NCBI GenBank assembly: GCA_963768265.1
Contig: CAVYHM010000044.1
Span: forward strand, 212,206 to 276,205
Direction of reading: 5' to 3'
DNA: 64,000 nucleotides
DNA from: an uncultured Acidobacteriaceae bacterium
GTDB lineage: Bacteria; Acidobacteriota; Terriglobia; Terriglobales; Acidobacteriaceae
Under the pieces are notes generated by a model that had not been told where the DNA came from, searched no databases, and worked only from the letters and a program-made list of their open reading frames with translations. Shown in pieces: positions 17,718 to 48,769 of the stretch. Made by a program: the position numbers and the translations under genes. Position 1 is the stretch's first letter; each line of letters begins with the position of its first letter.

Positions 17718-18113
17718 TTGACGCACGAAAAGTCCTCGCGCCCGAATCTGCCTCCTGTGTCTGAGCAGATGAAAGCCTGGTCCGCGGCTTTAGCGAGCGA
17801 GATCAGCGGCTGGCCGCAGGTCGCGTCGAGAGCCTTCTTCGGACTCACAGCCCTTTATCGCAAAGACAAAATCTTCGCCGTGCTGCCCCGCAGCCGAGGT
17901 ATGGGAACGGCAAACTCATTCGGGTTCAAATTCGAGACTGCGCCCACGAGTCTGCTCGACCAATTGGACAAGGATTCCCGCATCGGCTCTACCCGGATGC
18001 AGAAGGCGTGCTGGTTCACGTTTGAACTCTCCTCCGACGCGGATCTCCACGAGGGTCTTGAGTGGCTCTCTAGGGCTTACCAAGCCGCGGGCAAGACTAA
18101 GAAATCACAGTAG
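17718..18113 (+). CDS. Hypothetical protein
   Basis: 131-aa ORF from TTG. An alternative ATG at 17769 gives MKAWSAALASEISGW.... No confident family assignment. Confidence 0.4.
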   Translation: MTHEKSSRPNLPPVSEQMKAWSAALASEISGWPQVASRAFFGLTALYRKDKIFAVLPRSRGMGTANSFGFKFETAPTSLLDQLDKDSRIGSTRMQKACWFTFELSSDADLHEGLEWLSRAYQAAGKTKKSQ

Positions 18114-18156
18114 TTGCCGGTGACTTGTGATCAGAATCACATCAGGCGTATACTGC

Positions 18157-18176
18157 ATTCGAACGAACGTTCGAAT
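18157..18176. promoter_or_regulatory. Perfect 9-2-9 palindrome, candidate TetR operator
   Basis: The sequence attcgaacg aa cgttcgaat sits 10 nt upstream of the tetR ATG at 18186. Confidence 0.45.
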
Positions 18177-18185
18177 TAATTGGTT

Positions 18186-18863
18186 ATGGCCACGCTTTCG
18201 ACTGCTGGACGAATTTCCGTGCGCCGTCACTCCGCGGCGCTTGCTCCAGCCACGCGCTACGATCGACGCCTCGCGGAGATCCTGATTCACGCCACCGAGG
18301 TCTTTTGCAAGAAGGGATACGAGGGCGCTTCGATGCGCGACCTTTCCCGCGCCAGTGGCATGTCGCTTGCCGGTCTGTACTATTACTTCGAATCCAAAGA
18401 ACGGCTGTTGTTCGTGATCCAGAAGCACACGTTTACGACGATTGTAGAGAGACTCAAGGCGCGACTGGAAGGCGTGAGTGATACGGAAGAACGCATCCGA
18501 ATTTTCATCCTCAACCACCTCGAATATTTCCTAGCCAACCAGGCGGCCATGAAGGTCCTCTCACACGAGGCGGAGGTACTGAAGAACGGATTCGCAGAGG
18601 AAGTGGCCGCTATCAAGCGCGAGTACTATCGCATTTGCGTAGGCCTGCTCGACGACCTGAAGGGCGAGCGGGACTTGCAGTTCTCGACCCGGATCGCTGT
18701 TCTCAGTCTGTTCGGCATGATGAACTGGATCTACACCTGGCACAACCCGCGCGTGGATGCCGACGCTGTCTCCATGGCCCGCGAGATGGCCGACATTTTT
18801 TTGCGCGGGGTCGTGACGCCGGCGAAGGCGCGCAAGGACAAGGACAAAGACAAAGAGCGGTGA
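18186..18863 (+). CDS. TetR/AcrR family transcriptional regulator
   Basis: HTH region ILIHATEVFCKKGYEGASMRDLSRASGMSLAGLYYYFESKERLL. ATG at 18186, just inside the TTG ORF start at 18180. Confidence 0.85.
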   Translation: MATLSTAGRISVRRHSAALAPATRYDRRLAEILIHATEVFCKKGYEGASMRDLSRASGMSLAGLYYYFESKERLLFVIQKHTFTTIVERLKARLEGVSDTEERIRIFILNHLEYFLANQAAMKVLSHEAEVLKNGFAEEVAAIKREYYRICVGLLDDLKGERDLQFSTRIAVLSLFGMMNWIYTWHNPRVDADAVSMAREMADIFLRGVVTPAKARKDKDKDKER

Positions 18864-18916
18864 GGCGAACCGGGCATCAATTCGATTTCTGACATTCCCA
18901 GCAAGGAGTCTTTGAC

Positions 18917-19738
18917 ATGGCGACCACAATGCAGCCCGCGACCGGCGAAACCACGAAACAACTGATCAACTACCGCACCGATGGCGGCATCGGCGTGATT
19001 GAGATGTGCGATCCGCCCGCCAACACGTACACCTATGTAATGAATCGGCAGCTCGATGACGCGATCCTCAAGGCGCGCATGGACAACGACGTCTACGTGA
19101 TCGTGCTGACAGGTGCGGGCGACAAGTTCTTCTCCGCCGGCGCCAACATCAATATGCTTGCCAGCGTCGATCCCACGTTCAAGTACTACTTCTGCCTGCA
19201 TGCCAACGAAATGCTGCTGCGTCTGGAACACACGCCCAAGTTGGTGATTGCCGCGATCAACGGCCACTGCGTGGGTGGTGGGCTGGAGATCGCGATGGCC
19301 GCGGACATTCGCATCGCGCGCAAAGATGCCGGCAAGATTGGCCTGCCGGAAGTGAACCTGGGCGTACTTCCCGGCACCGGCGGCACGCAGCGCCTCTCGC
19401 GGATGGTGGGGAAGAGTAAGGCCATCGAACTGATGGTGACCGGCAACACGTTCTCGTTCGAAGAGGCGCAGGAACTCGGCATCGTCAACGACATCTTCGA
19501 GCGCGACGGCTTCATGGAAAACATCATGGAGTACGCCAAACAGTTCTGTCCGCCTAACAAAGCTTCGAAGGCCGTCGGACGAATCAAGCGCGCCGTGCAG
19601 ACGGGCTGGGAGATTCCGATGGAATCGGCGCTGGCGGTCGAACGCGAGAACCAGCAGTTGCTATTCCAAAGCGAGGACGCGAAGGAGGGACTGGCTGCTT
19701 ACGTGGAGAAGCGGCCAGCGATCTTCAAGGCGAAGTAA
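18917..19738 (+). CDS. Enoyl-CoA hydratase/isomerase (crotonase) family protein
   Basis: Crotonase core FFSAGANI...INGHCVGGGLEIAMAADIRIA...GLPEVNLGVLPGTGGTQRL. Confidence 0.85.
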   Translation: MATTMQPATGETTKQLINYRTDGGIGVIEMCDPPANTYTYVMNRQLDDAILKARMDNDVYVIVLTGAGDKFFSAGANINMLASVDPTFKYYFCLHANEMLLRLEHTPKLVIAAINGHCVGGGLEIAMAADIRIARKDAGKIGLPEVNLGVLPGTGGTQRLSRMVGKSKAIELMVTGNTFSFEEAQELGIVNDIFERDGFMENIMEYAKQFCPPNKASKAVGRIKRAVQTGWEIPMESALAVERENQQLLFQSEDAKEGLAAYVEKRPAIFKAK

Positions 19739-19821
19739 GTCGGTGACGTGAGACTGGCAGCGTGTGGGGACGGCACTCCTGCCCGTCCGCCGAGCGAGGC
19801 TCGGCTCTGTGATGAGGATAA

Positions 19822-21291
19822 ATGATGCTTGCGGCGACCAAAGTTAGTCTGAAGCCCGGCAGGCTACTAATCGACGGCGCGTGGGTCGAGGGAGAGAAGA
19901 CCTTCGACACCATCAATCCCGCTACGGGCGAAGTGCTCACGCAAATCGCGGAAGGCACGCCCGCTGACGTGGACCGTGCCGTCAATGCTGCGCGCCGTGC
20001 CTTCGAAGACCGCGGCGGTCCCTGGCGCAAACTCTCGGCCAGCGAGCGCGGACGCCTGATCTGGAAGCTTGCCGATCTCGTGGAGAAAAACATCGAGGAG
20101 CTGACCGAACTGGAAACCCTCGACAACGGCAAGCCAATTTTTGAATCGCGCTATGTCGACCTGCCGATGGTGATCGACGTTCTGCGCTATTACGCAGGCC
20201 TGGCGACGAAAATTCACGGTGAGACTGTCAACACGCTTGAGACCGCGTTTACGTATACGCTCCGCGAGCCGGTCGGTGTAGTTGGTCTGATTGTTCCGTG
20301 GAATTTCCCGCTTTTGCTTGCATCGTGGAAGGTCGGACCGGCTCTGGCGTGTGGCAATACGATTCTTCTCAAGCCTGCCGAACAGACCCCGCTGACGACG
20401 CTGAGATTTGGAGAACTTGTCATCGAGGCCGGTTTTGCGCCAGGCGTGGTTAACATTCTGACCGGCGGGCCGGAGACGGGCAGGGCGATCGTCGCGCATC
20501 CCGGTATCGACAAGATCGCTTTCACCGGCTCAACCGCTGTTGGCAGAGAAATCATGCGCGGTGCGGCCGATACGCTGAAGCGCGTGACCTTGGAACTCGG
20601 AGGCAAGTCACCGAATATCGTATTCGCTGACTCCGATATCGATAGCGCGGTGAAGGGTGCGATTAACGGCATTTTCTACGGGAAGGGCGAAGTCTGCAAT
20701 GCGGGCTCGCGGCTATTCCTTGAGAGCAAGCTAAAAGACGAATTCAATGAAAAACTCATAGCCCGCGCTTCGAAGATGCGGCCGGCCGATCCGCTCGATC
20801 CGAAGACGCGGCTGGGGGCCATCGTCAGCCAGGAGCAGATGCAGACCGTGCTGGAATATATCGAAGCCGGCAAGCAGGACGGCGCCAGGCTAGTCGCAGG
20901 CGGTAACCGAGTCGCGGTCGACGGTAATAAAGGATTCTTCATCGAGCCAACAATTTTCGGCGACGTGCAAAACGACATGAAGATTGCCCGCGAAGAAATC
21001 TTCGGTCCTGTACTTTCCGTGCTCACCTTCGATGATCTGGACGAAGTCATCGAGCAGGCGAACAACAATCCGTACGGGCTAGCGGCGGCAGTCTGGACCC
21101 GCGACGTGAAAAAGGCGCACACCGTCTCGCGCCGGCTCAAGGCGGGAACCGTATGGATCAATACCTACGGCCTTATGGACGCGTCGCTCCCGTTTGGCGG
21201 ATACAAGAGCTCCGGCTTCGGCCGCGAATTGGGCGCGCACGCGATGGAACATTACACCGAGTTGAAAACAGTTTGGTTGAACATGGGATAG
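19822..21291 (+). CDS. NAD(P)-dependent aldehyde dehydrogenase (general ALDH family)
   Basis: VPWNFPLL, KPAEQTPL, FTGST, LELGGKSP (catalytic Glu), GEVCNAGSR (catalytic Cys), EEIFGPV. Confidence 0.9.
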   Translation: MMLAATKVSLKPGRLLIDGAWVEGEKTFDTINPATGEVLTQIAEGTPADVDRAVNAARRAFEDRGGPWRKLSASERGRLIWKLADLVEKNIEELTELETLDNGKPIFESRYVDLPMVIDVLRYYAGLATKIHGETVNTLETAFTYTLREPVGVVGLIVPWNFPLLLASWKVGPALACGNTILLKPAEQTPLTTLRFGELVIEAGFAPGVVNILTGGPETGRAIVAHPGIDKIAFTGSTAVGREIMRGAADTLKRVTLELGGKSPNIVFADSDIDSAVKGAINGIFYGKGEVCNAGSRLFLESKLKDEFNEKLIARASKMRPADPLDPKTRLGAIVSQEQMQTVLEYIEAGKQDGARLVAGGNRVAVDGNKGFFIEPTIFGDVQNDMKIAREEIFGPVLSVLTFDDLDEVIEQANNNPYGLAAAVWTRDVKKAHTVSRRLKAGTVWINTYGLMDASLPFGGYKSSGFGRELGAHAMEHYTELKTVWLNMG

Positions 21292-21339
21292 TTAACACTC
21301 CGGCTGAGTGCTAGTTGCCGGTAAGGGCAACCTGCGGGA

Positions 21340-22533
21340 GTGAATGAGGTCAAGATTATGCCGGGCAAAGTCGCAAAAATCGGAACGTTTAGTGAATGGA
21401 TGGGTCTGTTCAACGATTGGCGCAAGGAAATCGGGGTCAACACTGATGATATCGAAGCCTTCCACTTCGACACGCTTTACGGAGCGATCGAAACGGAAGA
21501 GATCGAGTTTGGCTCCTACAAAGGCCGGCGTAAGTGGGAGAACCTGCGCCAGATCCCCACGCAGCAGATGCGCGACGCGCTGATGAACATGATCGTCTAC
21601 CAGGGCGACACCGAATTTGCCAGTGTCGAACAGCAGCGCAACCTATTGCAGAATGCTCCGACCGACTGGGACCGCCGCGCCATCACCCGCGTCATGATCG
21701 AAGAGATGCGCCACGGCTGGCAGATGTGCGCCCTCTTGGTCGACCACTTCGGCTACTCCGGCAAGGTGGAAGCGCAGAAGATGCTGGAGCGGCGGGCCTT
21801 TGACAATCAGCGTCTACTCGGCGCGTTCAATGTGGACGTTGACAACTGGATGGATTTTTTCACCTACACCGACTTCGTCGACCGCGATGGTAAGTTCCAG
21901 TTGCAGATGCTGAAGTACTCGGCCTTTGCCCCGCTTGGCCGCTCCATGTCCTACATGTTGCGCGAAGAGGCCTTCCACATGGGCGCCGGCAACGATGGGC
22001 TCCGCCGCATCGTGGAGGCGGGCGTGATCCCGCCGTGGTTGATTCAGAAGTATCTCAACAAATGGATTTCGTGTTCCTACGATCTGTTCGGCACCGACCA
22101 TTCTTCTTCGGCGCACTGGGCCTACGTTTGGGGCGTGAAAGGTCGCTATGACGAACCCAAGAATGAGCAGGCCCCCGATCTCGACGATCTGAATGACTAC
22201 AACCGTAACCTTTATCGGGATGAAGTTTCCGGACTGATCGAGCGTTTCAACGGCTCGCTTGATCCGGCTGCGCCGAAGCTTTACGCGCCGCACATCAAGT
22301 TCAATCGCGCGATTGGCCGCTGGGCCGGGCAGAAATTCCACGCTCAGACTGGCGACCCGCTCGACGATCGCGACTACGAGCAGCATTTCAAAGAATCCAT
22401 GCCGTCCGCCGAGGACAAGAAATTGCTGCTCGACATCATCGACGCGGAGAAGAAGTGGATTGCCGAAAAGACCGGGGCTCGCGACCCGTTGTCCACGATT
22501 GGAGAAGTGCGGAAGTCTGCGATCAACCTGTAG
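21340..22533 (+). CDS. BoxB/PaaA-family diiron acyl-CoA oxygenase-like protein (short form)
   Basis: Two ExxH motifs (IEEMRH, REEAFH), each preceded at about 29 residues by an acidic ligand candidate (GDTE, VDRDG). The blocks QGDTEFASVEQQR and DRDGKFQLQML match my memory of benzoyl-CoA epoxidase BoxB. The start is GTG 21340 or ATG 21358. Confidence 0.6.
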   Translation: MNEVKIMPGKVAKIGTFSEWMGLFNDWRKEIGVNTDDIEAFHFDTLYGAIETEEIEFGSYKGRRKWENLRQIPTQQMRDALMNMIVYQGDTEFASVEQQRNLLQNAPTDWDRRAITRVMIEEMRHGWQMCALLVDHFGYSGKVEAQKMLERRAFDNQRLLGAFNVDVDNWMDFFTYTDFVDRDGKFQLQMLKYSAFAPLGRSMSYMLREEAFHMGAGNDGLRRIVEAGVIPPWLIQKYLNKWISCSYDLFGTDHSSSAHWAYVWGVKGRYDEPKNEQAPDLDDLNDYNRNLYRDEVSGLIERFNGSLDPAAPKLYAPHIKFNRAIGRWAGQKFHAQTGDPLDDRDYEQHFKESMPSAEDKKLLLDIIDAEKKWIAEKTGARDPLSTIGEVRKSAINL

Positions 22534-22596
22534 CAGGGTGCATGGAATGTTTGGGAAGAGCACGGCTTGAGGCTGTGTGCAAGGAACTCTAACGAT

Positions 22597-23379
22597 ATGC
22601 CGTTGATGCCCACCGCCGTATCCCGTCTTGCAGTCAACGTGGCTGCTCCCGTGGCTCGGGTCACCCTGCGCAATCCCCCGCTGAATGTAATCGACATTCC
22701 GATGATGGAGGAGTTGGCGCACTTTCTGGCGGAGCTTGACTCTCGGCCAGACGTTTCCGTAATCGTTCTGAGCGGCGACGGGAAAGCATTTTCAGCGGGC
22801 GTGGACGTGGCCGCGCATACTCCCGACAAAGTTGAGGAGATGCTGACGAAGTTCCACGTCGTGGTCCGGGCTCTGCTGGCAACGAAGAAAGTAACGGTTG
22901 CGACGGTTCATGGGCCCTGCTCGGGCGGGGGAGCAGAGTTGGCGATGGTTTGTGATATAGCGTTCACAACTGAGTCGGCCCAGTGGGGATTCCCGGAAAT
23001 CAAGCTCGGTTGCTATCCTCCGGTGGCGTGCACGGCTCTCGCGGTGCTCGTCGGCCAGAAACGGGCGGCAGAGCTGATTCTTACCGGACGCACAATCGGG
23101 GGCAAGGAGTGCGCGGACATCGGGTTGGCGACTCGTGCCGTGCCCGGGAACGAATTGACCGCCGCCGTCGAGGAGTGTGTGGGACATTTGCTCAGCCTGA
23201 GCCCAGCGGCCCTGGCAATCGCCAAGAAGGCCTCTTACGCCTGGGACTCCATGCACTTCGACAAGGGCCTCGCCCGGGCAGAAAAAATCTATTTCGAAGA
23301 GCTAATCAAGACGGCAGACTCGGGTGAAGGTGTCCGCGCGTTTATGGAGAAGCGCGCGCCCAGTTGGACCGGGAAATAA
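22597..23379 (+). CDS. Enoyl-CoA hydratase/isomerase (crotonase) family protein
   Basis: RVTLRNPPLNVID..., KAFSAGVDV, HGPCSGGGAELAMVCD, GFPEIKLGCYPPVA. Start chosen at ATG 22597 within TTG ORF 22567. Confidence 0.8.
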   Translation: MPLMPTAVSRLAVNVAAPVARVTLRNPPLNVIDIPMMEELAHFLAELDSRPDVSVIVLSGDGKAFSAGVDVAAHTPDKVEEMLTKFHVVVRALLATKKVTVATVHGPCSGGGAELAMVCDIAFTTESAQWGFPEIKLGCYPPVACTALAVLVGQKRAAELILTGRTIGGKECADIGLATRAVPGNELTAAVEECVGHLLSLSPAALAIAKKASYAWDSMHFDKGLARAEKIYFEELIKTADSGEGVRAFMEKRAPSWTGK

Positions 23380-23392
23380 CGCAGCACAACCT

Positions 23393-23716
23393 ATGGATTA
23401 CGAAATTACTCCCGAGGAAGTGAAGTCTAAGCTCGACGCGGGAGAGGAGTTTGTCCTGCTCGATGTTCGAGAACCCTGGGAATTCGAAACCGCCCGTATC
23501 GACGGTGCGAAGTTGATTCCTATGGGGGATGTGCCTTCGAGGGCGCATCAGGAACTCGATCCCGAGGGACCGATCGTGGTGCTCTGCCATCATGGCGTCC
23601 GTTCCATGAACGTTACGGTCTGGCTCCGCCAGCAGGGTTTCGAAAAAGCGCAGTCCATGCGGGGCGGCATCGATGCCTGGTCGCGTCGCGTAGACGGGAA
23701 AGTTCCGATGTATTAA
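23393..23716 (+). CDS. Single-domain rhodanese-like sulfurtransferase
   Basis: MDYEITPEEVKSKLDAGEEFVLLDVREPWEF... and active-site loop VVLCHHGVRS. Confidence 0.8.
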   Translation: MDYEITPEEVKSKLDAGEEFVLLDVREPWEFETARIDGAKLIPMGDVPSRAHQELDPEGPIVVLCHHGVRSMNVTVWLRQQGFEKAQSMRGGIDAWSRRVDGKVPMY

Positions 23717-23765
23717 GAGCGCCCCTACTTTGGCCGAGGAAAGCTAAGAGCTAAAGAGCCGCAAA

Positions 23766-24257
23766 GTGAAAAAAGAACTCGTCGACCTGAAAATCAACGG
23801 ACGGACCTATGAACTCGCCATCGAGTCGAGTGCACTGCTGCTCGATGTGTTGCGCCAGGAGTTACAACTGACAGGCTCGAAACGCGGCTGTGATGATTCG
23901 TCGTGCGGCGCTTGTACGGTGCTGGTCGATGGCATCGCCATGATGTCCTGCACTCTCCTGGCAGCAAGCTGCGAAGGGCGAGAGGTCACGACCGTCGAAG
24001 GAGTCAGTGAGAACGGCTGCCTGGCGGCGATTCAAAAAGCATACGGAGATTGGGGTGGCGCGCAGTGCGGATACTGCACGCCGGGTTTCATCATGACGGT
24101 AAAGTCGTTACTGGCGGAGAACCCGAACCCATCGGAAGAGGACGTTCGCGCCGCGCTCAGCAGTAATTTGTGCCGCTGCACCGGGTACAACCAGATGTAT
24201 GAAGCGATCCGCGCAGCGCTTGCAGCGGAGCGAAAGGAATTGGTCGGGGCTAAGTAA
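23766..24257 (+). CDS. (2Fe-2S)-binding small subunit of a xanthine-dehydrogenase-family molybdoenzyme (HcrC/CoxS-like)
   Basis: CDDSSCGACTV...C (plant-type cluster) and GAQCGYCTPGF...CRCTGY (second cluster). GTG start. Confidence 0.9.
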   Translation: MKKELVDLKINGRTYELAIESSALLLDVLRQELQLTGSKRGCDDSSCGACTVLVDGIAMMSCTLLAASCEGREVTTVEGVSENGCLAAIQKAYGDWGGAQCGYCTPGFIMTVKSLLAENPNPSEEDVRAALSSNLCRCTGYNQMYEAIRAALAAERKELVGAK

Positions 24258-24278
24258 TGTCGTGTAAGGAAAATGAAA

Positions 24279-24318
24279 GCAGATTCCTCTCCTTCGCTTC
24301 GCTCAGGGTCGGAATGGC
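24279..24318. repeat. Intergenic repeat family A copy
   Basis: gcagattcctctccttcgcttcgctcagggtcggaatggc lies between the small and large Mo-enzyme subunit genes. It matches 6946-6979. Confidence 0.6.
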
Positions 24319-24332
24319 ACACCTAAGATGAG

Positions 24333-26915
24333 ATGAAACACGACTTTTCCATCATCGGCAAGCCTACTGCCATGATCGATGCGGCGGAGAAGACCACCGG
24401 CGCTGGCAAGTACACCGATGATCTGCGCCTGCCCGGCATGCTGGTCGGTAAGATTCTGCACTCGCCTTATCCCCACGCCCGGCTGAGACGCATCGACGCG
24501 AGCCGCGCAGAGAAACTCGAAGGAGTAGTCGCCGTTGTCGTCGGCAAAGACGCGCCTAACCCCTACGGCATTCTTCCCGTCGGCCACGACGAGCATGCTC
24601 TTGCGCTCGACAAAGTTCGCTATGTTGGCGACAACGTTGCCTGCGTCGTTGCTGTTTCGGAGGCTGTTGCCGAATCAGCCCTGGAACTCATCGACGTCGA
24701 CTATGAGGTCCTTCCGGCCTACTTTGATCCAGAACAGGCGATGAAGGCCATAACAGTCCTCATCCACGACAACAAGCCCGGCAACATCGAGAAGGACTAT
24801 CACCACGTCTTCGGCGATCCCGATCGCGGTTTCGCGGATGCCGATCACGTGGCCGAAGCCCGCTTCATAGCCAATGAGGTCACGCACGCGGCCATGGAGC
24901 CGCATTCCACCCTGGCCTCGTTCGAAATCGATCCGCACAGTGGAAAGCCCGGACGCCTCACCGTCTGGTCGTCGACGCAAGTCCCTTACTACCTTCAGCA
25001 CAAACTTTCCCTCGTACTCGAAATGCCGATGGCGCAGATTCGCGTGATCAAGCCGCTGGTCGGCGGCGGCTTCGGCGGGAAGAGCGAGGTCATTCCGCTC
25101 GAAATCATCGCCGCCGTGGCTGCGCGGAAAGCCAAGGCTCCGGTCAGGATCACTTACACTCGCGAGGAAGTGTTCTGGGCACATCGAGGACGTCCGCGCA
25201 CCATCATCGATCTGAAAACCGGCGTGAAGAAAGATGGCCGCATCAGCGCCGTGAAGGCTCGAGTGGTGCAGGACGGCGGCGCCTACTGCTCCTACGGTGT
25301 GGTGACGATTCTCTATTCCGGCGCGCTGCTCGGCGCGCTCTACGATATTCCAAACATTCAGTACGACGGATACCGCGTGCTGACCAACAAACCCGCCTGT
25401 GGCGCGATGCGCGGCCACGGCACGGTGAACGTGCGCTTCGCGTTCGAATCGCAACTCGATGAACTCGCAGCCACGATTGGCATGGACCCCGCTGAAATTC
25501 GCCAGCGCAATCTATTGCAGCCGCCCTGTATCACGGTCAACGGCCTGCGCGTGCAGAGCTACGGTTTGCCCGAGTGCATTGAGAAAACGGTCGAGCGCTC
25601 GGGCTGGAAGGAGCGCCACGGCAAACTGCCCGCAGGACGCGGCCTTGGCATCGCGTGCAGTCATTACGTCAGCGGCGCCGCGAATTCTATTATTCGCTCC
25701 GATATGCCGCATTCCACGGTCAACATCAAGATCGACCGCGACGGTGGGGTTGTGGTGTACACCGGCGCCTCGGAAATCGGGCAGGGCTCAGACACGATGA
25801 CGGCTCAGATCGCGGCCGAAGCGCTGGGATGTTCGCTTTCTCGCGTGCGCGTCATCGCCGCCGATACTGATCTGACGCCCATCGACATTGGTTCGTACTC
25901 CAGCCGGGTTACGTTCATGGCGGGGAACGCTACGCTGCGTGCGGCTGGGGAAGTGAAGAAGCTGATTGCGGCTGCGGCGGCTAAGAAGATGGGATGCACT
26001 CTCGCGAACCTGACCTTTCGCAACGATCGAGTGTTCAGGAGAGATGTTGCTGCATCTTCGTGGTCAGAGTTGGCGGACATGAGTGTCCGCCCCACACAAC
26101 ACGAAACCTCGGTCAGTGGCCGCGTCGAAGGCCAGATTCTGCGCGGATCCCTGCAGCAGAAACGCAAGGACGAAGGGCCCAAAGATTGGATGACTTTCGA
26201 AGAGGCAGTCGTTGCGGCGATCGATTTTCACGGAGCCCTCACAGGAACCGGATCGTATGCTCCTCCGGCGGAAGCTCGCGGCGGCAAACACAAGGGCGGG
26301 GGCGTGGGGCCCTCGCCTGCTTACTCTTACTCGGCCCAGGTCGCCGAGGTCAGCGTCGATCAGGAAACCGGAGAAGTCACGGTACACAAGGTCTGGGCCG
26401 CGCACGACTGCGGCCGGGCTCTGAATCCGGTTTCCGTCGAAGGCCAGATCATTGGCTCCGTCTGGATGGGCATGGGGCAGGCCCTCACTGAAGAGATGGT
26501 CTGGAAAGACGGCATGCTCATGAACCCGGGGCTGCTCGAATATCGCAGTCCTTCGTCGGTGGAGTCTCCGACGGTCGAACCGATCATCGTCGAAAGCATC
26601 GATCCCGAGGGTCCTTTCGGCGCGAAGGAGTGCAGCGAGGGGTCGCTGGCCGCAACCATTCCTGCCATCGCAAATGCCATTTACGATGCAGTTGGAGTGC
26701 GCTTGCATGAGTCGCCGTTCACTCCGGAAAGGGTGCTGGCGGCCCTGCGCGCAAAAAAGAATGCCAAGGCGTTAGACCTGACCGAGGGGATTGACCCGAC
26801 TGCGCCCACCCGTTTTCGGGAACATGGGGGATCGCTCTGCTTCGACGGCAAAGGACCACATCGACACGCACTCGATCCTTCGCGGCGTGAAGCATCCATC
26901 GGAGGCGCGGATTGA
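24333..26915 (+). CDS. Molybdopterin-binding large subunit, xanthine dehydrogenase family (HcrA/CoxL-like), with an internal insertion and a C-terminal tail
   Basis: 860 aa. It has the aldehyde oxidase/XDH a/b hammerhead N-terminus (GKPTAMIDAAEKTTGAGKYTDD), GGGFGGK, and C-terminal ECSEGSL (active-site Glu region). Confidence 0.85.
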   Translation: MKHDFSIIGKPTAMIDAAEKTTGAGKYTDDLRLPGMLVGKILHSPYPHARLRRIDASRAEKLEGVVAVVVGKDAPNPYGILPVGHDEHALALDKVRYVGDNVACVVAVSEAVAESALELIDVDYEVLPAYFDPEQAMKAITVLIHDNKPGNIEKDYHHVFGDPDRGFADADHVAEARFIANEVTHAAMEPHSTLASFEIDPHSGKPGRLTVWSSTQVPYYLQHKLSLVLEMPMAQIRVIKPLVGGGFGGKSEVIPLEIIAAVAARKAKAPVRITYTREEVFWAHRGRPRTIIDLKTGVKKDGRISAVKARVVQDGGAYCSYGVVTILYSGALLGALYDIPNIQYDGYRVLTNKPACGAMRGHGTVNVRFAFESQLDELAATIGMDPAEIRQRNLLQPPCITVNGLRVQSYGLPECIEKTVERSGWKERHGKLPAGRGLGIACSHYVSGAANSIIRSDMPHSTVNIKIDRDGGVVVYTGASEIGQGSDTMTAQIAAEALGCSLSRVRVIAADTDLTPIDIGSYSSRVTFMAGNATLRAAGEVKKLIAAAAAKKMGCTLANLTFRNDRVFRRDVAASSWSELADMSVRPTQHETSVSGRVEGQILRGSLQQKRKDEGPKDWMTFEEAVVAAIDFHGALTGTGSYAPPAEARGGKHKGGGVGPSPAYSYSAQVAEVSVDQETGEVTVHKVWAAHDCGRALNPVSVEGQIIGSVWMGMGQALTEEMVWKDGMLMNPGLLEYRSPSSVESPTVEPIIVESIDPEGPFGAKECSEGSLAATIPAIANAIYDAVGVRLHESPFTPERVLAALRAKKNAKALDLTEGIDPTAPTRFREHGGSLCFDGKGPHRHALDPSRREASIGGAD

Positions 26916-27946
26916 GCTTGCCCACGTTCAAGCTATTGCGCCCGCGGTCGGTCGGCGAAGCCGTTGAAATTCTGGCGGGACGCACTGCTCGTGTGGCCGC
27001 GGGCGACTCGCCCGCGCAGGCGACCCGCATTATCGCCGGTGGCACGGACCTGATCCCCTCGATGCGGCAGAAGCTGTTTGAGCCAGGGTACGTTCTCGAT
27101 CTGTCCGGAATCACTACGTTACGCGGAATTTCTCCCCTCCCCGATGGTGGCGTCGAAATCGGGGCGTTGACCACGCTGCGGGCCATCGAACGCTCAGCCT
27201 TCCTGCGCCAGCACTATGCTGTTCTCGCAGAAGCCGCGGCCACTGTTGCCTCACCCGTGTTGCGCAACATGGGGACGATTGGCGGCAACATCTGTCTCGA
27301 CACGCGCTGTCTCTGGTACAACCAGTCGCTTACCTGGCGCAAGGGATGTGGCTTCTGCATCAAGAAAGATGGCGACCTCTGCCATGTTGCCCCGGGCGGC
27401 ACCAAGTGCTGGGCCGCATTTTCCGGCGACACGCCTGCTGCGCTGCTCTGCCTGAATGCCGAGATCGAAATCGCGAGCGCTTCTGGGCTGCGCCGCGTGC
27501 CGCTGCACGAGTTCTACACCGGGCTGGGCGACGACTATCGCAAGCTGAAGCCGAACGAGATTGTCACCCGCGTGCTTCTGCCCGCGTCCTCTGCCGACTA
27601 TCGCGGTGTGTACCGCAAGTTACGGGTTCGCGGATCGATCGACTACCCGCTGGCTGGAGTTGCAGTGGTCATGAAGCGCTCGAATGGCCATATAGCCGAT
27701 GCCCGCATCGGCATTACTGCAGTCAATCCCGCTCCTGTGCTGGTGAAGGGAGCAGGCGAGTTGCTCTCAGGCAAGGTCGTCGACGAAATCCTCGCCGAAG
27801 CCGCTGGAGACTTGGCGGCGAAGACCGCAAAGCCGCTCACTACTTCTGCCCTCACGCCCGAGTACCGCCGCGAGATGATTCGCGTATTTACGAAGAGGGC
27901 AGTGATGGCGTGCGCCCAAGTGGCCGGTCGGACTGATCGAAATTAG
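26912..27946 (+). CDS. FAD-binding medium subunit (HcrB/CoxM-like) with an extra Cys-rich [4Fe-4S]-type loop
   Basis: The TTG start overlaps the upstream stop (TTGA). It has the AGGTDL FAD motif and the insertion NICLDTRCLWYNQSLTWRKGCGFCIKKDGDLCHVAPGGTKCW. Confidence 0.8.
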   Translation: MSLPTFKLLRPRSVGEAVEILAGRTARVAAGDSPAQATRIIAGGTDLIPSMRQKLFEPGYVLDLSGITTLRGISPLPDGGVEIGALTTLRAIERSAFLRQHYAVLAEAAATVASPVLRNMGTIGGNICLDTRCLWYNQSLTWRKGCGFCIKKDGDLCHVAPGGTKCWAAFSGDTPAALLCLNAEIEIASASGLRRVPLHEFYTGLGDDYRKLKPNEIVTRVLLPASSADYRGVYRKLRVRGSIDYPLAGVAVVMKRSNGHIADARIGITAVNPAPVLVKGAGELLSGKVVDEILAEAAGDLAAKTAKPLTTSALTPEYRREMIRVFTKRAVMACAQVAGRTDRN

Positions 27947-27966
27947 TTTTCGTGAAGGAGAGAAAC

Positions 27967-28467
27967 ATGACTCGTTACCATATCGCTCAGGTTAACATTG
28001 GGCGAGTGAGAGCCCCGATCGGGGACCCGCTGATGGCCGGATTTGTTGCGCGCCTGGACGATCTCAACGCGCTCGCGGATCACAGTCCCGGATTTGTCTG
28101 GCGTCTGCAAACATCAGAAGGAAACGCGACGTACTTTCGGCCCTATGATGACGAGCGAATCCTGATGAACATGTCAGTCTGGGAGACGATTGACGCACTC
28201 CGACACTACGTCTACCAGACGGTCCATGCGGAGCTGCTCCGGCAGCGACACGACTGGTTCGAAAAGTTCACAGGCACGTATACCGCTTTGTGGTGGGTGC
28301 CCGCCGGTCATCGCCCGGGAATCGACGAGGCGAGGAAGCGTCTGGCCCACCTGGAAAAGCACGGGCCAACGGAATTCGCTTTCTCCTTCAAAACGACTTT
28401 TCAACCGGATGCGCGATTTCAGCAGGCCATCGACTGGGTGTCGTTTCAGCCTTGTCCAGCCGCATAG
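27967..28467 (+). CDS. DUF3291 domain protein
   Basis: MTRYHIAQVNIGRVRAPIGDPLMAGFVARLDDLNALADHSPGFVWRLQ, the typical DUF3291 N-terminus (from memory). An AAGGAG lies 7 nt upstream of ATG 27967. Confidence 0.65.
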   Translation: MTRYHIAQVNIGRVRAPIGDPLMAGFVARLDDLNALADHSPGFVWRLQTSEGNATYFRPYDDERILMNMSVWETIDALRHYVYQTVHAELLRQRHDWFEKFTGTYTALWWVPAGHRPGIDEARKRLAHLEKHGPTEFAFSFKTTFQPDARFQQAIDWVSFQPCPAA

Positions 28468-28545
28468 GCCGTGTGTCGCCAAAATGCGGTGAATCCTAGG
28501 GCAGCTGATAGAATTCCGGCCTGAGAGACCGGACCCCAACCACTT

Positions 28546-29388
28546 GTGATCACCGACTGCCACATCCATATCCAGCCGATAGAGATGTTCAAGGCCGACG
28601 CGCTTGAGCTCATGAAACGGAAGCGGCCGAACTTCGACCAGATCGTCGAGTTCTGCCGCTCACCCAAGGCCTTCCTCAAGTTTCTGGACGCGAGCGGCCT
28701 CGACCGAGCGATGCTGATCAACTACGTGGCGCCGGAAGTAATCGGCTTCACCAACGGGGTAAATCAGTTCGTCGCCGACTATGTAAAGGAAGATCCAACC
28801 AGACTGCTCTCGTGTGGCAGCCTGCATCCGCGGCACACCACCAACGTCTTGGCCGATGTGGAGCAGATTTTGCGGCTGGGACTGAAGATGATCAAGATTC
28901 ATCCGCCGCACCAATTGCTGTTTCCCAATGACTATCTCAGCGGCGTCAAAGAGCTCGAGATCATCTATCGCGCGGCGGAGGCCAACGGTGTGCCCGTAAT
29001 GTTCCACACCGGAACCTCGATTTTTCCGGGTGCCCGCAACAAGTATGGCGATCCGATCTATGTCGACGATGTCGCGGTCGATTTCCCCAAGCTGAAGATC
29101 TTGCTGGCCCACGGCGGCCGCCCGCTCTGGATGCAGACCGCGTTCTTTCTCGTGCGCCGGCACCCTAACGTCTATCTCGATATCAGTGGAATTCCGCCCA
29201 AGACCCTGCTCAAGTATTTTCCTCGTCTGGAAGAAATCGCTCACAAGACGCTGTTCGGCACAGACTGGCCGGGTCCCGGCGTGCCCGACATCAAGAAAAA
29301 TCTCGACGAATTCCGCGCTCTTGCTTTGCCTGAGAACGTCCAGCGACAGATTCTCAGCGAAACTGCGCTAGGGATCTGGCCAGCCTGA
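28546..29388 (+). CDS. Amidohydrolase_2 (PF04909-type) metal-dependent hydrolase/decarboxylase
   Basis: N-terminal DCHIHI metal motif, later HPPHQ, FHTG, LAHGG and GTDWP. GTG start. Confidence 0.7.
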   Translation: MITDCHIHIQPIEMFKADALELMKRKRPNFDQIVEFCRSPKAFLKFLDASGLDRAMLINYVAPEVIGFTNGVNQFVADYVKEDPTRLLSCGSLHPRHTTNVLADVEQILRLGLKMIKIHPPHQLLFPNDYLSGVKELEIIYRAAEANGVPVMFHTGTSIFPGARNKYGDPIYVDDVAVDFPKLKILLAHGGRPLWMQTAFFLVRRHPNVYLDISGIPPKTLLKYFPRLEEIAHKTLFGTDWPGPGVPDIKKNLDEFRALALPENVQRQILSETALGIWPA

Positions 29389-38849: not shown

Positions 38850-39896
38850 ATGGCTTCTGAGGCCAATGCGCGCGTGCTCTCGGGCTTTCTCGACTACCTT
38901 CGAATCGAGAAGGGGCTGGCGGCGCTTTCGATCGGTGCCTATGCGACCGATATCTGCCAGTTCGCCGAGTTTCTGGAAAAACGGAGGCGGCTGCTGCTGA
39001 CTGGGCGGCGAAGCGACGTCCGCGAGTTTCTGCAGGAATTGTTTTCACATCAGGTGGACGGGCGCAGCGTGGGGCGGAAGCTTTCGGCGATGCGACATCT
39101 TTATCGATATTTGCTGCTGGACAAGAGGATCGAACACGATCCGACGCTGAATATTGAGTCGCCACGGCAATGGAAGGTTTTGCCCAAGGCGTTGGCGCGA
39201 GAGGAGATGGAAACTACGCTGGCGGCTCCTCTTGCGCGAGGCGCCGGCGTGCGTCGACAGACCCCACACTCTGCGGCGCTCGCTGTTCGGGATCGGGCGA
39301 TGCTGGAGGTGTTTTATGCCGGGGCGCTGCGCGTGTCGGAGGTGATCAACGCCAAGCTTGAGGATTTGAAGCTTGAGTCGGGGTACATGCTGGTTCGAGG
39401 AAAGGGTGACAAGGAGCGAGTGGTGCCGTTGGGAAAGTCGGCCCAGGATGCATTGTTGCAATATCTGGCCGAGGCGCGGCCGATTCTGGCTGGGATGAGG
39501 GCGACGAAAAATCCGCAGGTTTCGACTAGCTCTATTGAAAATCACGACGTTTCGACAGCCTCAGGGCGGGCTTTCTCGCGCAAAGAACGAGTGAGAAATG
39601 GGGCACCCGGGAATTCACCTCTGCTGTTTATTGCGCGCGGGGCGCGAAGACTGACGCGACAGAGGGTTTGGCAGATGGTCGGGGCGGCGTCGGTGGCCTC
39701 GGGACGACACGCTTCTCCGCACATGTTGCGGCACTCTTGCGCGACGCACATGGTGGAGAATGGCGCGGATTTGCGGACGGTGCAGACTATCCTCGGCCAT
39801 GCCGACATCTCGACGACGCAGGTGTATACCCATTTGGCGCTGGACCGGTTGCGGACTGTTTATCAGAAGCATCATCCGAGGGCGAAGGCGAGGTAG
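38850..39896 (+). CDS. xerD: Tyrosine recombinase, XerD-like, with a ~40-aa insertion
   Basis: N-terminal SAM-like domain (FLDYLRIEKGLAALSIGAYATDI), RVSEV (Arg), HMLRHSCATH, LGHADISTTQVYTHL (Tyr). The extra block MRATKNPQVSTSS...GAPGN precedes SPLLF. Confidence 0.7.
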   Translation: MASEANARVLSGFLDYLRIEKGLAALSIGAYATDICQFAEFLEKRRRLLLTGRRSDVREFLQELFSHQVDGRSVGRKLSAMRHLYRYLLLDKRIEHDPTLNIESPRQWKVLPKALAREEMETTLAAPLARGAGVRRQTPHSAALAVRDRAMLEVFYAGALRVSEVINAKLEDLKLESGYMLVRGKGDKERVVPLGKSAQDALLQYLAEARPILAGMRATKNPQVSTSSIENHDVSTASGRAFSRKERVRNGAPGNSPLLFIARGARRLTRQRVWQMVGAASVASGRHASPHMLRHSCATHMVENGADLRTVQTILGHADISTTQVYTHLALDRLRTVYQKHHPRAKAR

Positions 39897-45728: not shown

Positions 45729-45859
45729 GAGCGAGCGTATAGGCAAGTTAAGGTTTTCCGCCAAGCCCAAAATAGACTCTTGCGCTGGCGGACTGGGGAT
45801 CGAGGGTTTCCACAAGAGAGTCGTCCGCATCGAAAAAGTGCCTTTGAAGGGAGTTGCCT

Positions 45860-46381: not shown

Positions 46382-46384
46382 GCG

Positions 46385-48739: not shown

Positions 48740-48769
48740 GCGTTTGAGGTCTACCCCGGAACCAAGCGT

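Follow-up and report, generated by a model that had tools for sequence, protein, structure and literature searches.

Why should a diiron oxygenase of the BoxB family, which would consume O2, be encoded beside a molybdopterin reductase of a kind normally regarded as 'anaerobic'? The question is raised by the gene block at positions 18157-29388 of the window, that is, the whole 64-kb stretch of acidobacterial DNA analyzed here. The sequence belongs to Terriglobia and stands nearest to Candidatus Sulfotelmatobacter. The original prediction was a hybrid route, the hypothesis being that a substrate is dehydroxylated, then epoxidized, hydrolyzed and finally oxidized. The linkage underlying that route has held, as has the block's aromatic, acyl-CoA-related character, which is suggested by an HcrA of equivalog rank, an operator that fits the PaaR consensus and a replacement by PobA at one related locus. 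As a whole the route is plausible and has gained partial support. The diiron protein is not BoxB, neither crotonase resembles a ring-opening enzyme, and the aldehyde dehydrogenase (ALDH) is of neither the BoxD nor the PaaZ type.

Layout and control of the locus

The block is, as first described, a co-linear series of eleven plus-strand genes in the predicted order, all of which were recovered (Table 1). They are separated by gaps of 5-83 nt, and hcrA and hcrB overlap by 4 nt. Terminator-like sites are not enriched (14 found vs 12.2 ± 3.1 in shuffled sequences), and one promoter-like site and one operator serve the block. Housekeeping genes lie on both sides, with carAB and DHDPS upstream and citrate synthase, a class-V aminotransferase and MurA downstream. 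Some starts differ from the open reading frames as called: the TetR frame (18180-18863) opens at TTG 18180, the diiron protein (called at 21340-22533) starts at 21358 because its homologues are 391 aa long, and the true start of the rhodanese leaves no overlap with ECH2.

Table 1. Features of the block and its control region, in window coordinates
Feature	Coordinates	Strand	Basis and remarks
Promoter-like site, TTGTGA-18 nt-TATACT	18125..18154	+	Directly before the operator palindrome
CRP-type palindrome, TGTGA-N6-TCACA	18126-18141		Perfect; overlaps the promoter-like site
Operator palindrome, ATTCGAACGAACGTTCGAAT	18157..18176	.	Unique in window; 0.02 expected by chance
TetR-family repressor	18186..18863	+	Pfam TetR_N + TetR_C_24; likely start ATG 18186
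Crotonase ECH1, canonical enoyl-CoA hydratase type	18917..19738	+	Pfam, NCBIfam; the block's most conserved gene
Aldehyde dehydrogenase, class 1/2 free-aldehyde type	19822..21291	+	Aldedh, 606 bits
Short BoxB-family diiron protein, 391 aa, putative acyl-CoA oxygenase	21358..22533	+	Pfam PaaA_PaaC
Crotonase ECH2, hydratase type	22567..23379	+	Likely start ATG 22597
Single-domain rhodanese, 107 aa	23393..23716	+	Active-site Cys, CHHGVRS
HcrC, 2x[2Fe-2S] gamma subunit	23766..24257	+	Fer2 + Fer2_2; TIGR03193, 181.5 bits vs 257.8 cut-off
HcrA, molybdopterin alpha subunit	24333..26915	+	TIGR03194, 1033 bits, above 994.55 cut-off
HcrB, FAD beta subunit with Cys-rich [4Fe-4S] loop	26912..27946	+	TIGR03195, 309.9 bits vs 404.55 cut-off
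DUF3291 protein, rare accessory gene	27952..28467	+	Pfam
Amidohydrolase_2 metal hydrolase	28546..29388	+	HxH...D motif kept

In Pfam scans that covered nearly every window ORF of 150 aa or more, no BoxA/PaaE-type reductase, ferredoxin, BoxC or PaaZ analogue, AMP-forming CoA ligase, thiolase or benzoyl-CoA reductase came to light, in agreement with the predicted lack of BoxA, BoxC, CoA ligase and benzoyl-CoA reductase.

The pairing of operator and TetR gene was also recognized correctly. The palindrome is kept 5' of TetR in 76/77 related loci amid variable flanks, with a single copy at each locus and none elsewhere within ±10 kb. Its core, CGAACGAACGTTCG, fits the consensus CNAACGNNCGTTNG of PaaR, the repressor of Thermus paa operons (PMC6651687). 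In other phyla, BoxB-like genes have this motif 42-46 nt upstream. The best NCBIfam matches of the repressor, SACE_7040 and Bacillus FadR, both fall below cut-off. Second among its PDB matches ranks 3VPR, an entry deposited as a TetR-family regulator, which we take to be Thermus PfmR. PaaR responds to phenylacetyl-CoA, and the present TetR is probably an acyl-CoA-sensing repressor of a PaaR/FadR-like type with a putative ligand response. The CRP-type motif occurs only once in the 64 kb (0.05 expected) and is perfect and in the same position in 48/115 operator-bearing related loci.

Enzymes encoded in the block

[quoted passage not shown] HcrA matches the Thauera subunit 1RM6_A at 820 bits (next structure, 279 bits), relative to which it carries an insertion of ~60 residues (~557-618) and a C-terminal extension of ~50 residues. 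HcrB matches 1RM6_B at 219 bits and aligns all four loop cysteines (query C133, C149, C157 and C166), whereas FAD subunits of the CO-dehydrogenase type skip residues 129-171, where this loop lies. The earlier label 'Hcr-like' thus named the right family and understated HcrA, which passes the 4-HBCR equivalog cut-off.

'BoxB-like' was likewise accurate as to family, for a distant relative that is not BoxB. The diiron protein scores 226 bits against TIGR03225, less than half of the cut-off (499), and 175 bits against the BoxB structure 3PER; it belongs to a separate, widespread and uncharacterized clade of short proteins. Its predicted fold (AF2) is nearest to BoxB, with a TM score of 0.67 to 3PM5. 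In the 3PER alignment all six iron ligands of BoxB are retained. Five of the seven benzoyl-pocket residues (listed in PMC5489048) are also kept, namely Q116, T119, S123, F193 and F203, and the retained Gln is the one that binds the benzoyl thioester in BoxB. The remaining two are changed (F206 to Y and T210 to V), invariantly across the clade; together with the sub-threshold score, these changes suggest that the substrate may not be benzoyl-CoA. In Binatia and other phyla, the orthologous genes have housekeeping genes and a NuoE/NuoF-like pair as neighbors, and aromatic genes are absent.

The crotonases, proposed to be split enzymes that open the ring, are instead two complete canonical enzymes of ~270 aa each. 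Both keep the two catalytic Glu of hydratases (GGGLEIA and GLPEVNLG in ECH1), neither looks like a ring-opening enzyme, and hydroxycinnamoyl-CoA hydratase-lyase is matched weakly (125 bits vs 276 cut-off). Across 81 loci ECH1 keeps 88-97% identity and invariably adjoins or lies near the BoxB-like gene; ECH2 is 60-90% identical and in a deeper clade has as its neighbors a Gct-like CoA-transferase pair with an ENG catalytic motif. The ALDH assigned to the oxidation of an aldehyde to an acid proved to be a generic and optional member, present in 34/81 loci. Its best NCBIfam matches, BADH and StyD, are below cut-off, it scores 550 bits against ALDH2, and neither BoxD nor PaaZ appears among its top 25 NCBIfam matches.

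The rhodanese is not tied to Hcr, since it is kept in Hcr-less loci and missing from some that contain Hcr. DUF3291 accompanies 7/81 genome loci and a minority of metagenome loci. Amidohydrolase_2, whose sole PDB match is the uncharacterized protein 3IRS, follows Hcr or, in Hcr-less loci, stands immediately behind the rhodanese, 4-149 nt away.

Conservation of the two modules and their separability

The linkage of the BoxB-like and Hcr modules reaches well beyond the window. Among metagenomic relatives of HcrA with enough upstream sequence, the BoxB-like gene precedes hcr in 43/43, so that this hcr lineage was never found apart from the module; ECH2 is present in 59/60 such relatives. Conservation of the gene order, which had been put forward as a check, is asymmetric. 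Of 78 informative BoxB-like loci in Terriglobia genomes, 60 carry hcrCAB at the same place and 18 (23%), scattered over the tree, lack it, with the BoxB-like gene intact and equally conserved. One Hcr-less locus carries a deletion scar. Hcr has been lost repeatedly and is dispensable to the BoxB-like module. At one locus (L010), a 4HBT-fold thioesterase and PobA, a 4-hydroxybenzoate 3-monooxygenase (605 bits vs 351 cut-off), take the precise place of hcrCAB, which points independently to 4-hydroxybenzoyl-CoA or 4-hydroxybenzoate at this node. The BoxB-like and ECH1 genes are as conserved as carB, and because synteny is just as strong in the housekeeping flanks, the conserved adjacency is in part a matter of simple vertical inheritance.

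Competing readings and relation to known pathways

The best explanation, held tentatively and at a little under an even chance, is that the block forms a single TetR-controlled operon, transcribed as a unit, for breaking down p-hydroxylated aromatic acids in the form of their CoA thioesters in a facultatively anaerobic peat or soil acidobacterium. Promoter, operator, TetR, ECH1, the short diiron oxygenase and ECH2 would constitute an ancient core that is always present. A pathway acyl-CoA would release TetR from the operator, and the diiron enzyme, using O2 and external electrons from donors encoded elsewhere, would attack an aryl-CoA, for which benzoyl-CoA or a close analogue is the likeliest candidate. 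ECH1 and ECH2 would process the resulting non-aromatic enoyl-CoA intermediates, and ring opening may fall to Amidohydrolase_2 or to an enzyme encoded elsewhere. HcrCAB would act before this core as an accessory funnel, reductively removing the 4-hydroxyl of 4-hydroxybenzoyl-CoA and thereby opening the operon to phenolics of the 4-hydroxybenzoate type while spending only one O2 on each ring. Besides the identity of Hcr, the retained diiron ligands and pocket residues, the single control point, the linkage and the cassette swap in L010, the Gct-like pair of the deeper clade, a candidate activation step, is counted in favor of this reading. The host lineage is described as facultatively anaerobic and as possessing oxidases (PMC6018796), and the box strategy, with one O2 per ring, is regarded as adaptive where O2 is low or fluctuates (PMC9290046).

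Several observations count against such an operon: the low BoxB score and changed pocket of the oxygenase, the non-aromatic context of the orthologues in Binatia and other phyla, the lack of hcr in 23% of loci, the synteny shared by the housekeeping flanks, and a window devoid of a reductase, CoA ligase, BoxC/PaaZ analogue, thiolase and ferredoxin. A further one concerns the reductase itself: 4-HBCR, which is oxygen-sensitive and depends on a low-potential donor, makes an awkward match for a partner that requires O2. A rival reading makes the two enzymes parallel branches from 4-hydroxybenzoyl-CoA or a close p-hydroxyaryl-CoA, attacked directly by the BoxB-like protein when O2 is present and converted by Hcr, when it is not, to benzoyl-CoA destined for a reductive pathway whose genes lie elsewhere, with the thioesterase and PobA of L010 as a third exit. 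In its favor, the clade-invariant Tyr in place of Phe206 could form a bond with a ring hydroxyl, one node is found with three alternative cassettes or states, the host is a facultative anaerobe, and the inventory of an acidobacterial tundra bin lists hcrAB, bcrABCD, dch, had, oah and boxB together (PMC4842900). The bcr and related calls are, however, automated inventory entries only, the window holds no benzoyl-CoA reductase, and BoxB-like orthologues in other phyla lack 4-hydroxybenzoate genes; we consider these branches unlikely. Equally low is the probability we give to mere neighborhood, in which the TetR/ECH1/BoxB-like/ECH2 core handles another, possibly non-aromatic acyl-CoA common in soil bacteria and hcrCAB landed in, and is passed on with, a permissive site in Terriglobia. 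Retention of the operator and BoxB-like pair across phyla in non-aromatic contexts, hcr loss without decay of the BoxB-like gene, synteny into the housekeeping flanks and carB-like conservation, as expected of a core function, all fit. Yet hcr of this lineage always accompanies the module, the genes are tightly packed on one strand behind a single operator, the PobA swap retains the aromatic theme in situ, and the benzoyl pocket is mostly preserved.

A phenylpropanoid route, in which the core makes 4-hydroxybenzoyl-CoA or 4-hydroxybenzoate from, for example, p-coumarate by CoA transfer, hydration or cleavage by a crotonase, and aldehyde oxidation, with Hcr or PobA downstream, is quite improbable. 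It would employ the free-aldehyde ALDH, which is close to phenylacetaldehyde/benzaldehyde-class enzymes, and the Gct-like CoA-transferase, and the thioesterase beside PobA implies a CoA-bound precursor; but it leaves the diiron protein with nothing to do, 58% of loci have no ALDH, the two hydratase Glu are kept in both crotonases and the match to the hydratase-lyase is weak, and 3-hydroxyacyl-CoA dehydrogenase and thiolase are lacking. Very unlikely indeed is the alternative first offered for the linkage, that the Fe-S subunit HcrC and the FAD subunit HcrB form an electron chain to the diiron protein. It would supply what BoxA or PaaE, both missing from the window, might provide, and the NuoF/NuoE-like pair found with BoxB-like genes in other phyla carries flavin, [4Fe-4S] and [2Fe-2S] cofactors analogous to those of HcrB and HcrC. 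HcrB and HcrC are unrelated to that pair, however, and the idea is disfavored because hcr is dispensable to the BoxB-like module (18/78 loci) and because the catalytic HcrA, needless for a mere shuttle, is fully conserved (83-94% identity across loci).

If the operon for p-hydroxylated aromatic acids is the right reading, Hcr would act first and the BoxB-like enzyme second. The Hcr/BoxB-like gene arrangement is conserved in relatives and previously undescribed. In other phyla the NuoE/NuoF-like reductase pair comes after the BoxB-like gene, whereas here crotonases and Hcr are found instead.

Layout and control of the gene block

The original prediction described a co-linear block of genes on one strand, and ORF listing with Pfam/NCBIfam scans confirmed all eleven of them, on the + strand from 18.18 to 29.39 kb. 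They encode a TetR regulator, a first crotonase (ECH1), an aldehyde dehydrogenase (ALDH), a short BoxB-like diiron protein, a second crotonase (ECH2), a rhodanese, the subunits HcrC, HcrA and HcrB of a xanthine-oxidase-family Mo enzyme of the 4-HBCR (4-hydroxybenzoyl-CoA reductase) type, a DUF3291 protein and an amidohydrolase_2. The absence of BoxA, BoxC, a CoA ligase and benzoyl-CoA reductase, also claimed, was borne out across 64 kb: no BoxA/PaaE-like protein, BoxC, AMP-forming CoA ligase, thiolase or benzoyl-CoA reductase was found in the window. With the genes confirmed and these absences upheld, the underlying observation is correct. Homologues set the starts of the BoxB-like and rhodanese genes, the latter without overlap with ECH2. 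Intergenic gaps measure 5-83 nt, hcrA and hcrB overlap by 4 nt, and a terminator scan placed internal terminator-like sites in the block at no more than chance frequency. Housekeeping genes flank the block: carA/carB and DHDPS on the upstream side, and citrate synthase, a class-V aminotransferase and MurA on the downstream side. In base composition the Hcr cassette (GC 0.60-0.61, vs 0.58 nearby) shows no sign of horizontal acquisition.

Several neighbouring features were also recorded. An ORF of 131 aa without a family match occupies the interval between DHDPS and the operon promoter and is kept at 47-87% identity in about one third of related loci. Further downstream, a tyrosine recombinase/integrase gene lies amid several ORFs without family match (34.3-40.9 kb), which may be a small stretch of mobile or variable DNA. 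The window also encodes another Mo enzyme, unrelated to the first: an IorAB-like two-subunit type made up of a [2Fe-2S] subunit and a 784-aa MoCoBD subunit, with an AraC-family regulator gene after it.

Locations of features in the window and in related loci from other genomes or metagenomes (L numbers, with positions within the locus)
Feature	Location	Remark
ORF of 131 aa	window 17718-18113	
Promoter-like TTGTGA-18-TATACT	window 18125-18154	immediately before the palindrome
CRP-type site TGTGA-TCAGAA-TCACA	window 18126-18141	perfect; overlaps the -35 hexamer; sole such site in 64 kb
Operator palindrome ATTCGAACGAACGTTCGAAT	window 18157-18176	closely behind the -10; single copy in the window (0.02 expected)
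TetR start	window 18186	ATG; probable
BoxB-like start	window 21358	391 aa
Rhodanese start	window 23393	107 aa
hcrA	window 24333-26915	
Tyrosine recombinase/integrase	window 38850-39896	
Second Mo enzyme	window 45854-49759	
BoxB-like/NuoE-like/NuoF-like triad	L090:10001-12893	
BoxB-like/NuoE-like/NuoF-like triad	L092:10001-12705	operator at L092:9957-9972
BoxB-like/NuoE-like/NuoF-like triad	L093:10001-12734	
BoxB-like/NuoE-like/NuoF-like triad	L087:10001-12817	
Operator 5' of TetR	L082, ~9223	Bacteroidota-like contig
CoA-transferase-like pair around ECH2	L001:11304-13796	
Thioesterase and PobA in the hcrCAB slot	L010:9616-11276	Candidatus Sulfotelmatobacter MAG
BoxB-like gene beside Rieske oxygenase fragment	L088:2-607	
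Hcr locus without ECH2 or rhodanese directly upstream	L101:1-2214	

The core palindrome 5' of TetR is invariant in 76 of 77 related loci while the neighbouring bases vary, and its core, CGAACGAACGTTCG, fits exactly the consensus CNAACGNNCGTTNG of PaaR, the TetR-family repressor of the phenylacetate genes of Thermus thermophilus (PMC6651687). Further regulon members were sought through second operator copies, of which none occurs within 10 kb to either side in any locus. The regulator combines TetR_N (44.9 bits) with TetR_C_24 (65.4 bits), an acyl-CoA-type C-terminal domain. Regulators of the acyl-CoA type, Bacillus FadR among them, match it most closely, and 3VPR, which we take to be Thermus PfmR, was also matched. 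The best NCBIfam models, SACE_7040 and Bacillus FadR, score weakly and below cut-off, in a model set that includes no PaaR-specific entry. The CRP-type site stands alone in the window, and 48 of 115 related loci have a perfect copy at the corresponding position, which suggests that a CRP/FNR-family regulator provides a second input.

A short diiron protein beside a 4-HBCR-type enzyme

The product of the BoxB-like gene scores 226.3 bits against the BoxB equivalog TIGR03225 (cut-off 499.1), in three separate stretches. With less than half the cut-off score and three BoxB segments missing from the alignment, its identity as BoxB was rejected. The six diiron ligands are nonetheless identical (BoxB Glu120, Glu150, His153, Asp211, Glu240 and His243 correspond to E86, E116, H119, D175, E204 and H207), and five of seven benzoyl-pocket residues are kept, namely Gln116, Thr119, Ser123, Phe193 and Phe203, with Phe206 replaced by Tyr and Thr210 by Val; both residue lists follow PMC5489048. 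The retained Gln forms the hydrogen bond to the benzoyl thioester in BoxB. All top PDB matches of the AF2 model (pLDDT 71.5, pTM 0.78) are BoxB structures (TM 0.66-0.70), with SSO1313 and PaaA ranking behind them.

An exhaustive search placed the short BoxB-like proteins in a distinct clade with two subtypes. The 391-aa subtype is very abundant in Terriglobia (the best 120 of >7,000 database matches are 84-91% identical, mostly ~85%), and members of the 366-368-aa subtype were found in Binatia, Acidoferrales, Udaeobacter, Eisenbacteria and others. Tyr and Val at the two substituted positions are invariant or nearly so across the clade. The subtypes are only ~55% identical to each other, and the near-invariance of the whole pocket between them argues for one shared substrate. 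A short BoxB-like relative is encoded in at least 585 species-level genomes; the genome-collection scan kept the best 80 of at least 585 matches, and the spread beyond close relatives is read from a handful of individual contigs.

The genes that might supply electrons to this protein differ between lineages. Genes for boxA and boxC are absent from the 64-kb window and from all 161 related loci, and neither the window nor any acidobacterial locus has a NuoE/NuoF-like, BoxA or PaaE gene; evidently the oxygenase depends on a separate reductase, which the acidobacterial block does not encode. At four loci from other lineages, a 366-368-aa BoxB-like gene is followed by genes for a NuoE-like protein (thioredoxin-like, [2Fe-2S], 107 aa) and a NuoF-like one (FMN/[4Fe-4S], 410-420 aa), a pair that is a candidate new reductase system for the diiron oxygenase. 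These four loci contain no crotonase, Hcr or adjacent TetR gene, and their neighbours are housekeeping genes. In three of the triads (L090, L092 and L093) the operator TCGAACG-NN-CGTT(C/T)GA is found 42-46 nt ahead of the BoxB-like start, and on a Bacteroidota-like contig it stands 5' of a TetR gene that adjoins a 51%-identical BoxB-like gene. Since the same operator precedes BoxB-like genes in other phyla, its link to them is older than the acidobacterial operon. More distant BoxB-like members (39-48% identity) are stand-alone genes. Next to one short member, 39% identical, lies a gene fragment for a Rieske oxygenase of the VanA type (vanillate O-demethylase-like), a weak sign that the setting in another lineage may be aromatic.

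The Mo enzyme is more readily placed. HcrA passes the equivalog TIGR03194 (1033.3 bits, cut-off 994.55) and matches Thauera aromatica HcrA (1RM6_A) at 820 bits and ~60% identity, the next-best solved Mo enzyme scoring 279 bits. What we take to be the active-site residues of the Thauera subunit, Gln214, Tyr326 and Glu726, align in 1RM6_A with identical residues in the window protein. HcrB falls short of TIGR03195 (309.9 bits, cut-off 404.55), yet this is its best family by far, and HcrC falls short of TIGR03193 (181.5 bits, cut-off 257.8), tied with a glyceraldehyde dehydrogenase gamma subunit. The Cys-rich insertion of HcrB can be aligned with 1RM6_B, and all four Cys are kept; CO-dehydrogenase-type FAD subunits skip HcrB residues 129-171, and 5G5G_B aligns across them. 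Because E. coli PaoB has a similar Cys loop and [4Fe-4S] cluster and 5G5G_B spans the insertion, the loop is supportive of 4-HBCR without being unique to it. Taken together, the window protein is best classed as a real 4-HBCR-type enzyme. In the ‘inverted electron flow’ enzyme, the Cys-rich insertion is reported to hold the additional [4Fe-4S] cluster (Unciuleac et al., 2004). Relative to the Thauera subunit, HcrA also has a ~60-residue insertion (~557-618) and a ~50-residue C-terminal extension (~811-860), both kept in relatives (100% coverage, 83-94% identity).

The remaining enzymes are less specific. ECH1 (273 aa) and ECH2 (270 aa) each retain the hydratase Glu pair and match generic enoyl-CoA hydratase families best, in every case below cut-off. 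BoxC has ~550 aa, and size, Glu pair and weak family scores rule out both crotonases as analogues of BoxC, PaaZ or hydroxycinnamoyl-CoA lyase. The predicted assignment of the two as canonical hydratases speaks against the proposal that split crotonases open the ring. The top matches of the ALDH are betaine-aldehyde, phenylacetaldehyde and ALDH2-type enzymes, with no BoxD or PaaZ model among the top 25; it is predicted to be a generic free-aldehyde enzyme and is often absent from the block. The rhodanese was considered as an Hcr maturation factor, a simple reading that was rejected as it persists in Hcr-less loci and is missing from some Hcr loci. For the amidohydrolase_2, the sole match in a PDB sequence search was an uncharacterised protein, a homologue search returned only unnamed acidobacterial proteins (>=80% identity), and the poor AF2 model (pLDDT 59.7) gave no Foldseek match at E <= 0.001.

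Conservation among relatives and competing readings

The original prediction made conservation of gene order in relatives a check, and the order proved largely shared. TetR-ECH1-BoxB-like-ECH2 is essentially universal in 81 genome loci, the closest relative being a Candidatus Sulfotelmatobacter MAG at 96% identity. ALDH occurs in 34 of these loci and DUF3291 in 7, and amidohydrolase_2 in most loci of the window's own clade. In a deeper Terriglobales clade (83-87% identity) a CoA-transferase pair is interleaved with ECH2; it is glutaconate CoA-transferase-like, with 164 bits to GctA and the ENG catalytic motif in the B subunit. Such a pair (B ~265 aa, A ~311 aa) brackets ECH2 in L001 and ~22 other loci (e.g. 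L065 and L073) and is absent from the window's own clade.

Genes hcrCAB are present in 60 of 78 informative loci and missing from 18, which are scattered over the BoxB-like tree. In the latter the rhodanese gene adjoins the amidohydrolase gene with a gap of 4-149 nt, and one locus (L030) keeps an hcrB fragment; scatter, abutment and fragment together indicate loss of hcrCAB by repeated deletion. Conservation of the BoxB-like protein in Hcr-less loci equals that elsewhere. A reverse search gave 80 metagenomic HcrA loci, in which BoxB-like was judged where at least 4.2 kb lay upstream (n=43) and ECH2 where at least 2.2 kb did (n=60). BoxB-like lies upstream of HcrA in 43/43 and ECH2 in 59/60, so the Hcr of the window's lineage is an accessory found only within the BoxB-like operon. 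Part of this adjacency reflects vertical inheritance, since the housekeeping flanks are equally syntenic. The sole Hcr locus without ECH2 or rhodanese directly upstream (L101) is also the most divergent (83% identity), with ~1.2 kb of apparently non-coding sequence 5' of hcrC and a small extra ORF separating hcrC from hcrA.

At one locus, L010, the hcrCAB slot between rhodanese and amidohydrolase_2 holds a 4HBT-fold thioesterase (156 aa) and the 4-hydroxybenzoate 3-monooxygenase PobA (397 aa), whose genes share 4 nt; the end of PobA is 5 nt away from the amidohydrolase gene, and PobA scores 605 bits against NF006091 (cut-off 351) and 537.5 against TIGR02360 (cut-off 538.7). This swap is an independent pointer, from a single case, to 4-hydroxybenzoyl-CoA/4-hydroxybenzoate as the metabolite handled at this position, and it gives indirect support to the reaction predicted for Hcr, a reductive dehydroxylation of 4-hydroxybenzoyl-CoA with reduced ferredoxin. 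On the alternative of aromatic or non-aromatic substrates, which the original prediction had treated as decisive, this one locus speaks for aromatic.

The reading we prefer, tentatively and with slightly less than even confidence, is that of a single acyl-CoA-responsive operon for p-hydroxy-aromatic acids with Hcr as an add-on funnel. The BoxB-like oxygenase and the two hydratases would form the core, and Hcr would turn 4-hydroxybenzoyl-CoA into benzoyl-CoA to feed it. This operon reading suits the host, whose lineage is facultatively anaerobic (PMC6018796), as low or fluctuating O2 is the setting of the box strategy (PMC9290046). Two alternatives are each unlikely: that one hydroxyaryl-CoA meets parallel O2-dependent and O2-independent fates, and that the two modules are functionally independent, a reading favoured by the 18 loci that lack Hcr and opposed by the constant company of Hcr with the BoxB-like gene. 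That the core module shortens side chains is more doubtful still. Least probable is the suggestion, made in the original prediction, that HcrB and HcrC supply electrons to the diiron centre: the block encodes no reductase for the oxygenase, but the oxygenase stays intact in loci without Hcr and HcrA is conserved at equivalog level, both of which disfavour it.

Beyond the preferred operon reading, a broader one would make the short BoxB-like proteins a phylum-spanning class of aryl/acyl-CoA diiron oxygenases, and it is improbable that all its parts hold jointly. An ancient PaaR-type operator may govern the class, with interchangeable electron-input modules such as the NuoE/NuoF-like pair of Binatia and others. 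Terriglobia may have built the oxygenase and 4-hydroxybenzoyl-CoA reductase into one operon, and this may provide a route, independent of BoxA and BoxC, by which 4-hydroxybenzoate-type peat phenolics reach ring cleavage with one O2 per ring at low oxygen. In addition, Hcr might salvage phenolic dead-end products of the epoxidase.

Significance and relation to known systems

Both enzyme families are already known, as is the strategy, accepted for facultative anaerobes, of pairing anaerobic-type CoA routes with a box-type oxygenase. What appears to be new is their physical union in one operator-controlled block, a non-canonical oxygenase clade without BoxA or BoxC, and the way Hcr behaves as an accessory cassette, the PobA swap included. 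No description of the cluster or the short BoxB clade was found in the searchable literature, apart from an automated inventory of acidobacterial tundra bins that lists hcrAB and boxB (PMC4842900). Metagenome pipelines, JGI included, annotate the short protein as ‘benzoyl-CoA 2,3-epoxidase subunit B’; the BoxB label is unproven for this clade, and soil-metagenome ‘boxB’ probably counts mostly the short, different clade. For enzymologists the clade is a new, testable family of diiron oxygenases that has a conserved operator and, in other phyla, a second candidate type of reductase. In acidic peat and soil, these Terriglobia rank among the most abundant bacteria. Peat carbon storage is thought to be due in part to phenolics that persist where O2 is scarce, the ‘enzyme latch’ (PMC9599518). 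If the route is real, reductive removal of the phenolic hydroxyl followed by the use of one O2 per ring would be an oxygen-sparing use of peat phenolics.

Like the BoxABCD system of Azoarcus/Aromatoleum evansii, the block shows the diiron fold, Fe ligands, thioester-binding Gln and most pocket residues, a CoA-thioester logic, and a crotonase-superfamily enzyme and ALDH nearby. In contrast, it lacks the BoxA reductase and the BoxC dihydrodiol lyase, its oxygenase is ~80 residues shorter than BoxB, its ALDH is not BoxD-like, and it would be under TetR control, whereas box genes are controlled by BoxR. With HcrCAB/HbaBCD of Thauera aromatica and Rhodopseudomonas palustris it shares three subunits, the close alpha-subunit identity and the Cys loop of the FAD subunit. 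The host, however, is a facultatively aerobic acidobacterium, the genes come after one for an oxygenase of the O2-dependent type, the alpha subunit carries its insertion and tail, beta and gamma remain below equivalog cut-offs, and no ferredoxin or CoA ligase is nearby. The urolithin dehydroxylase of gut Enterocloster, a xanthine-oxidase-family enzyme for free phenols, is a same-family Mo enzyme that removes an aromatic hydroxyl (PMC12771579), but its substrate is not a CoA ester, and Thauera 4-HBCR is by far the closer relation of the enzyme in the window.

The hybrid strategy itself has precedents, among them the aerobic phthaloyl-CoA route of denitrifiers. In facultative anaerobes such as Georgfuchsia toluolica, an oxygen-independent route yields benzoyl-CoA, which is dearomatised with one O2 at low oxygen (PMC9290046). 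The concept is alike, although their modules lie in separate clusters with canonical BoxABC, whereas the window has one operator-controlled block and a non-canonical oxygenase. The regulator resembles Thermus thermophilus PaaR in its TetR family, operator consensus, probable autoregulation and position directly upstream of a PaaA/BoxB-superfamily oxygenase gene, but the genes under it are not paaABCDE. Finally, the triads of Binatia, Verrucomicrobiota and others share the diiron clade with its invariant pocket and the operator, and differ in having their own putative NADH/FMN/Fe-S reductase pair in place of crotonases, Hcr and an adjacent TetR.
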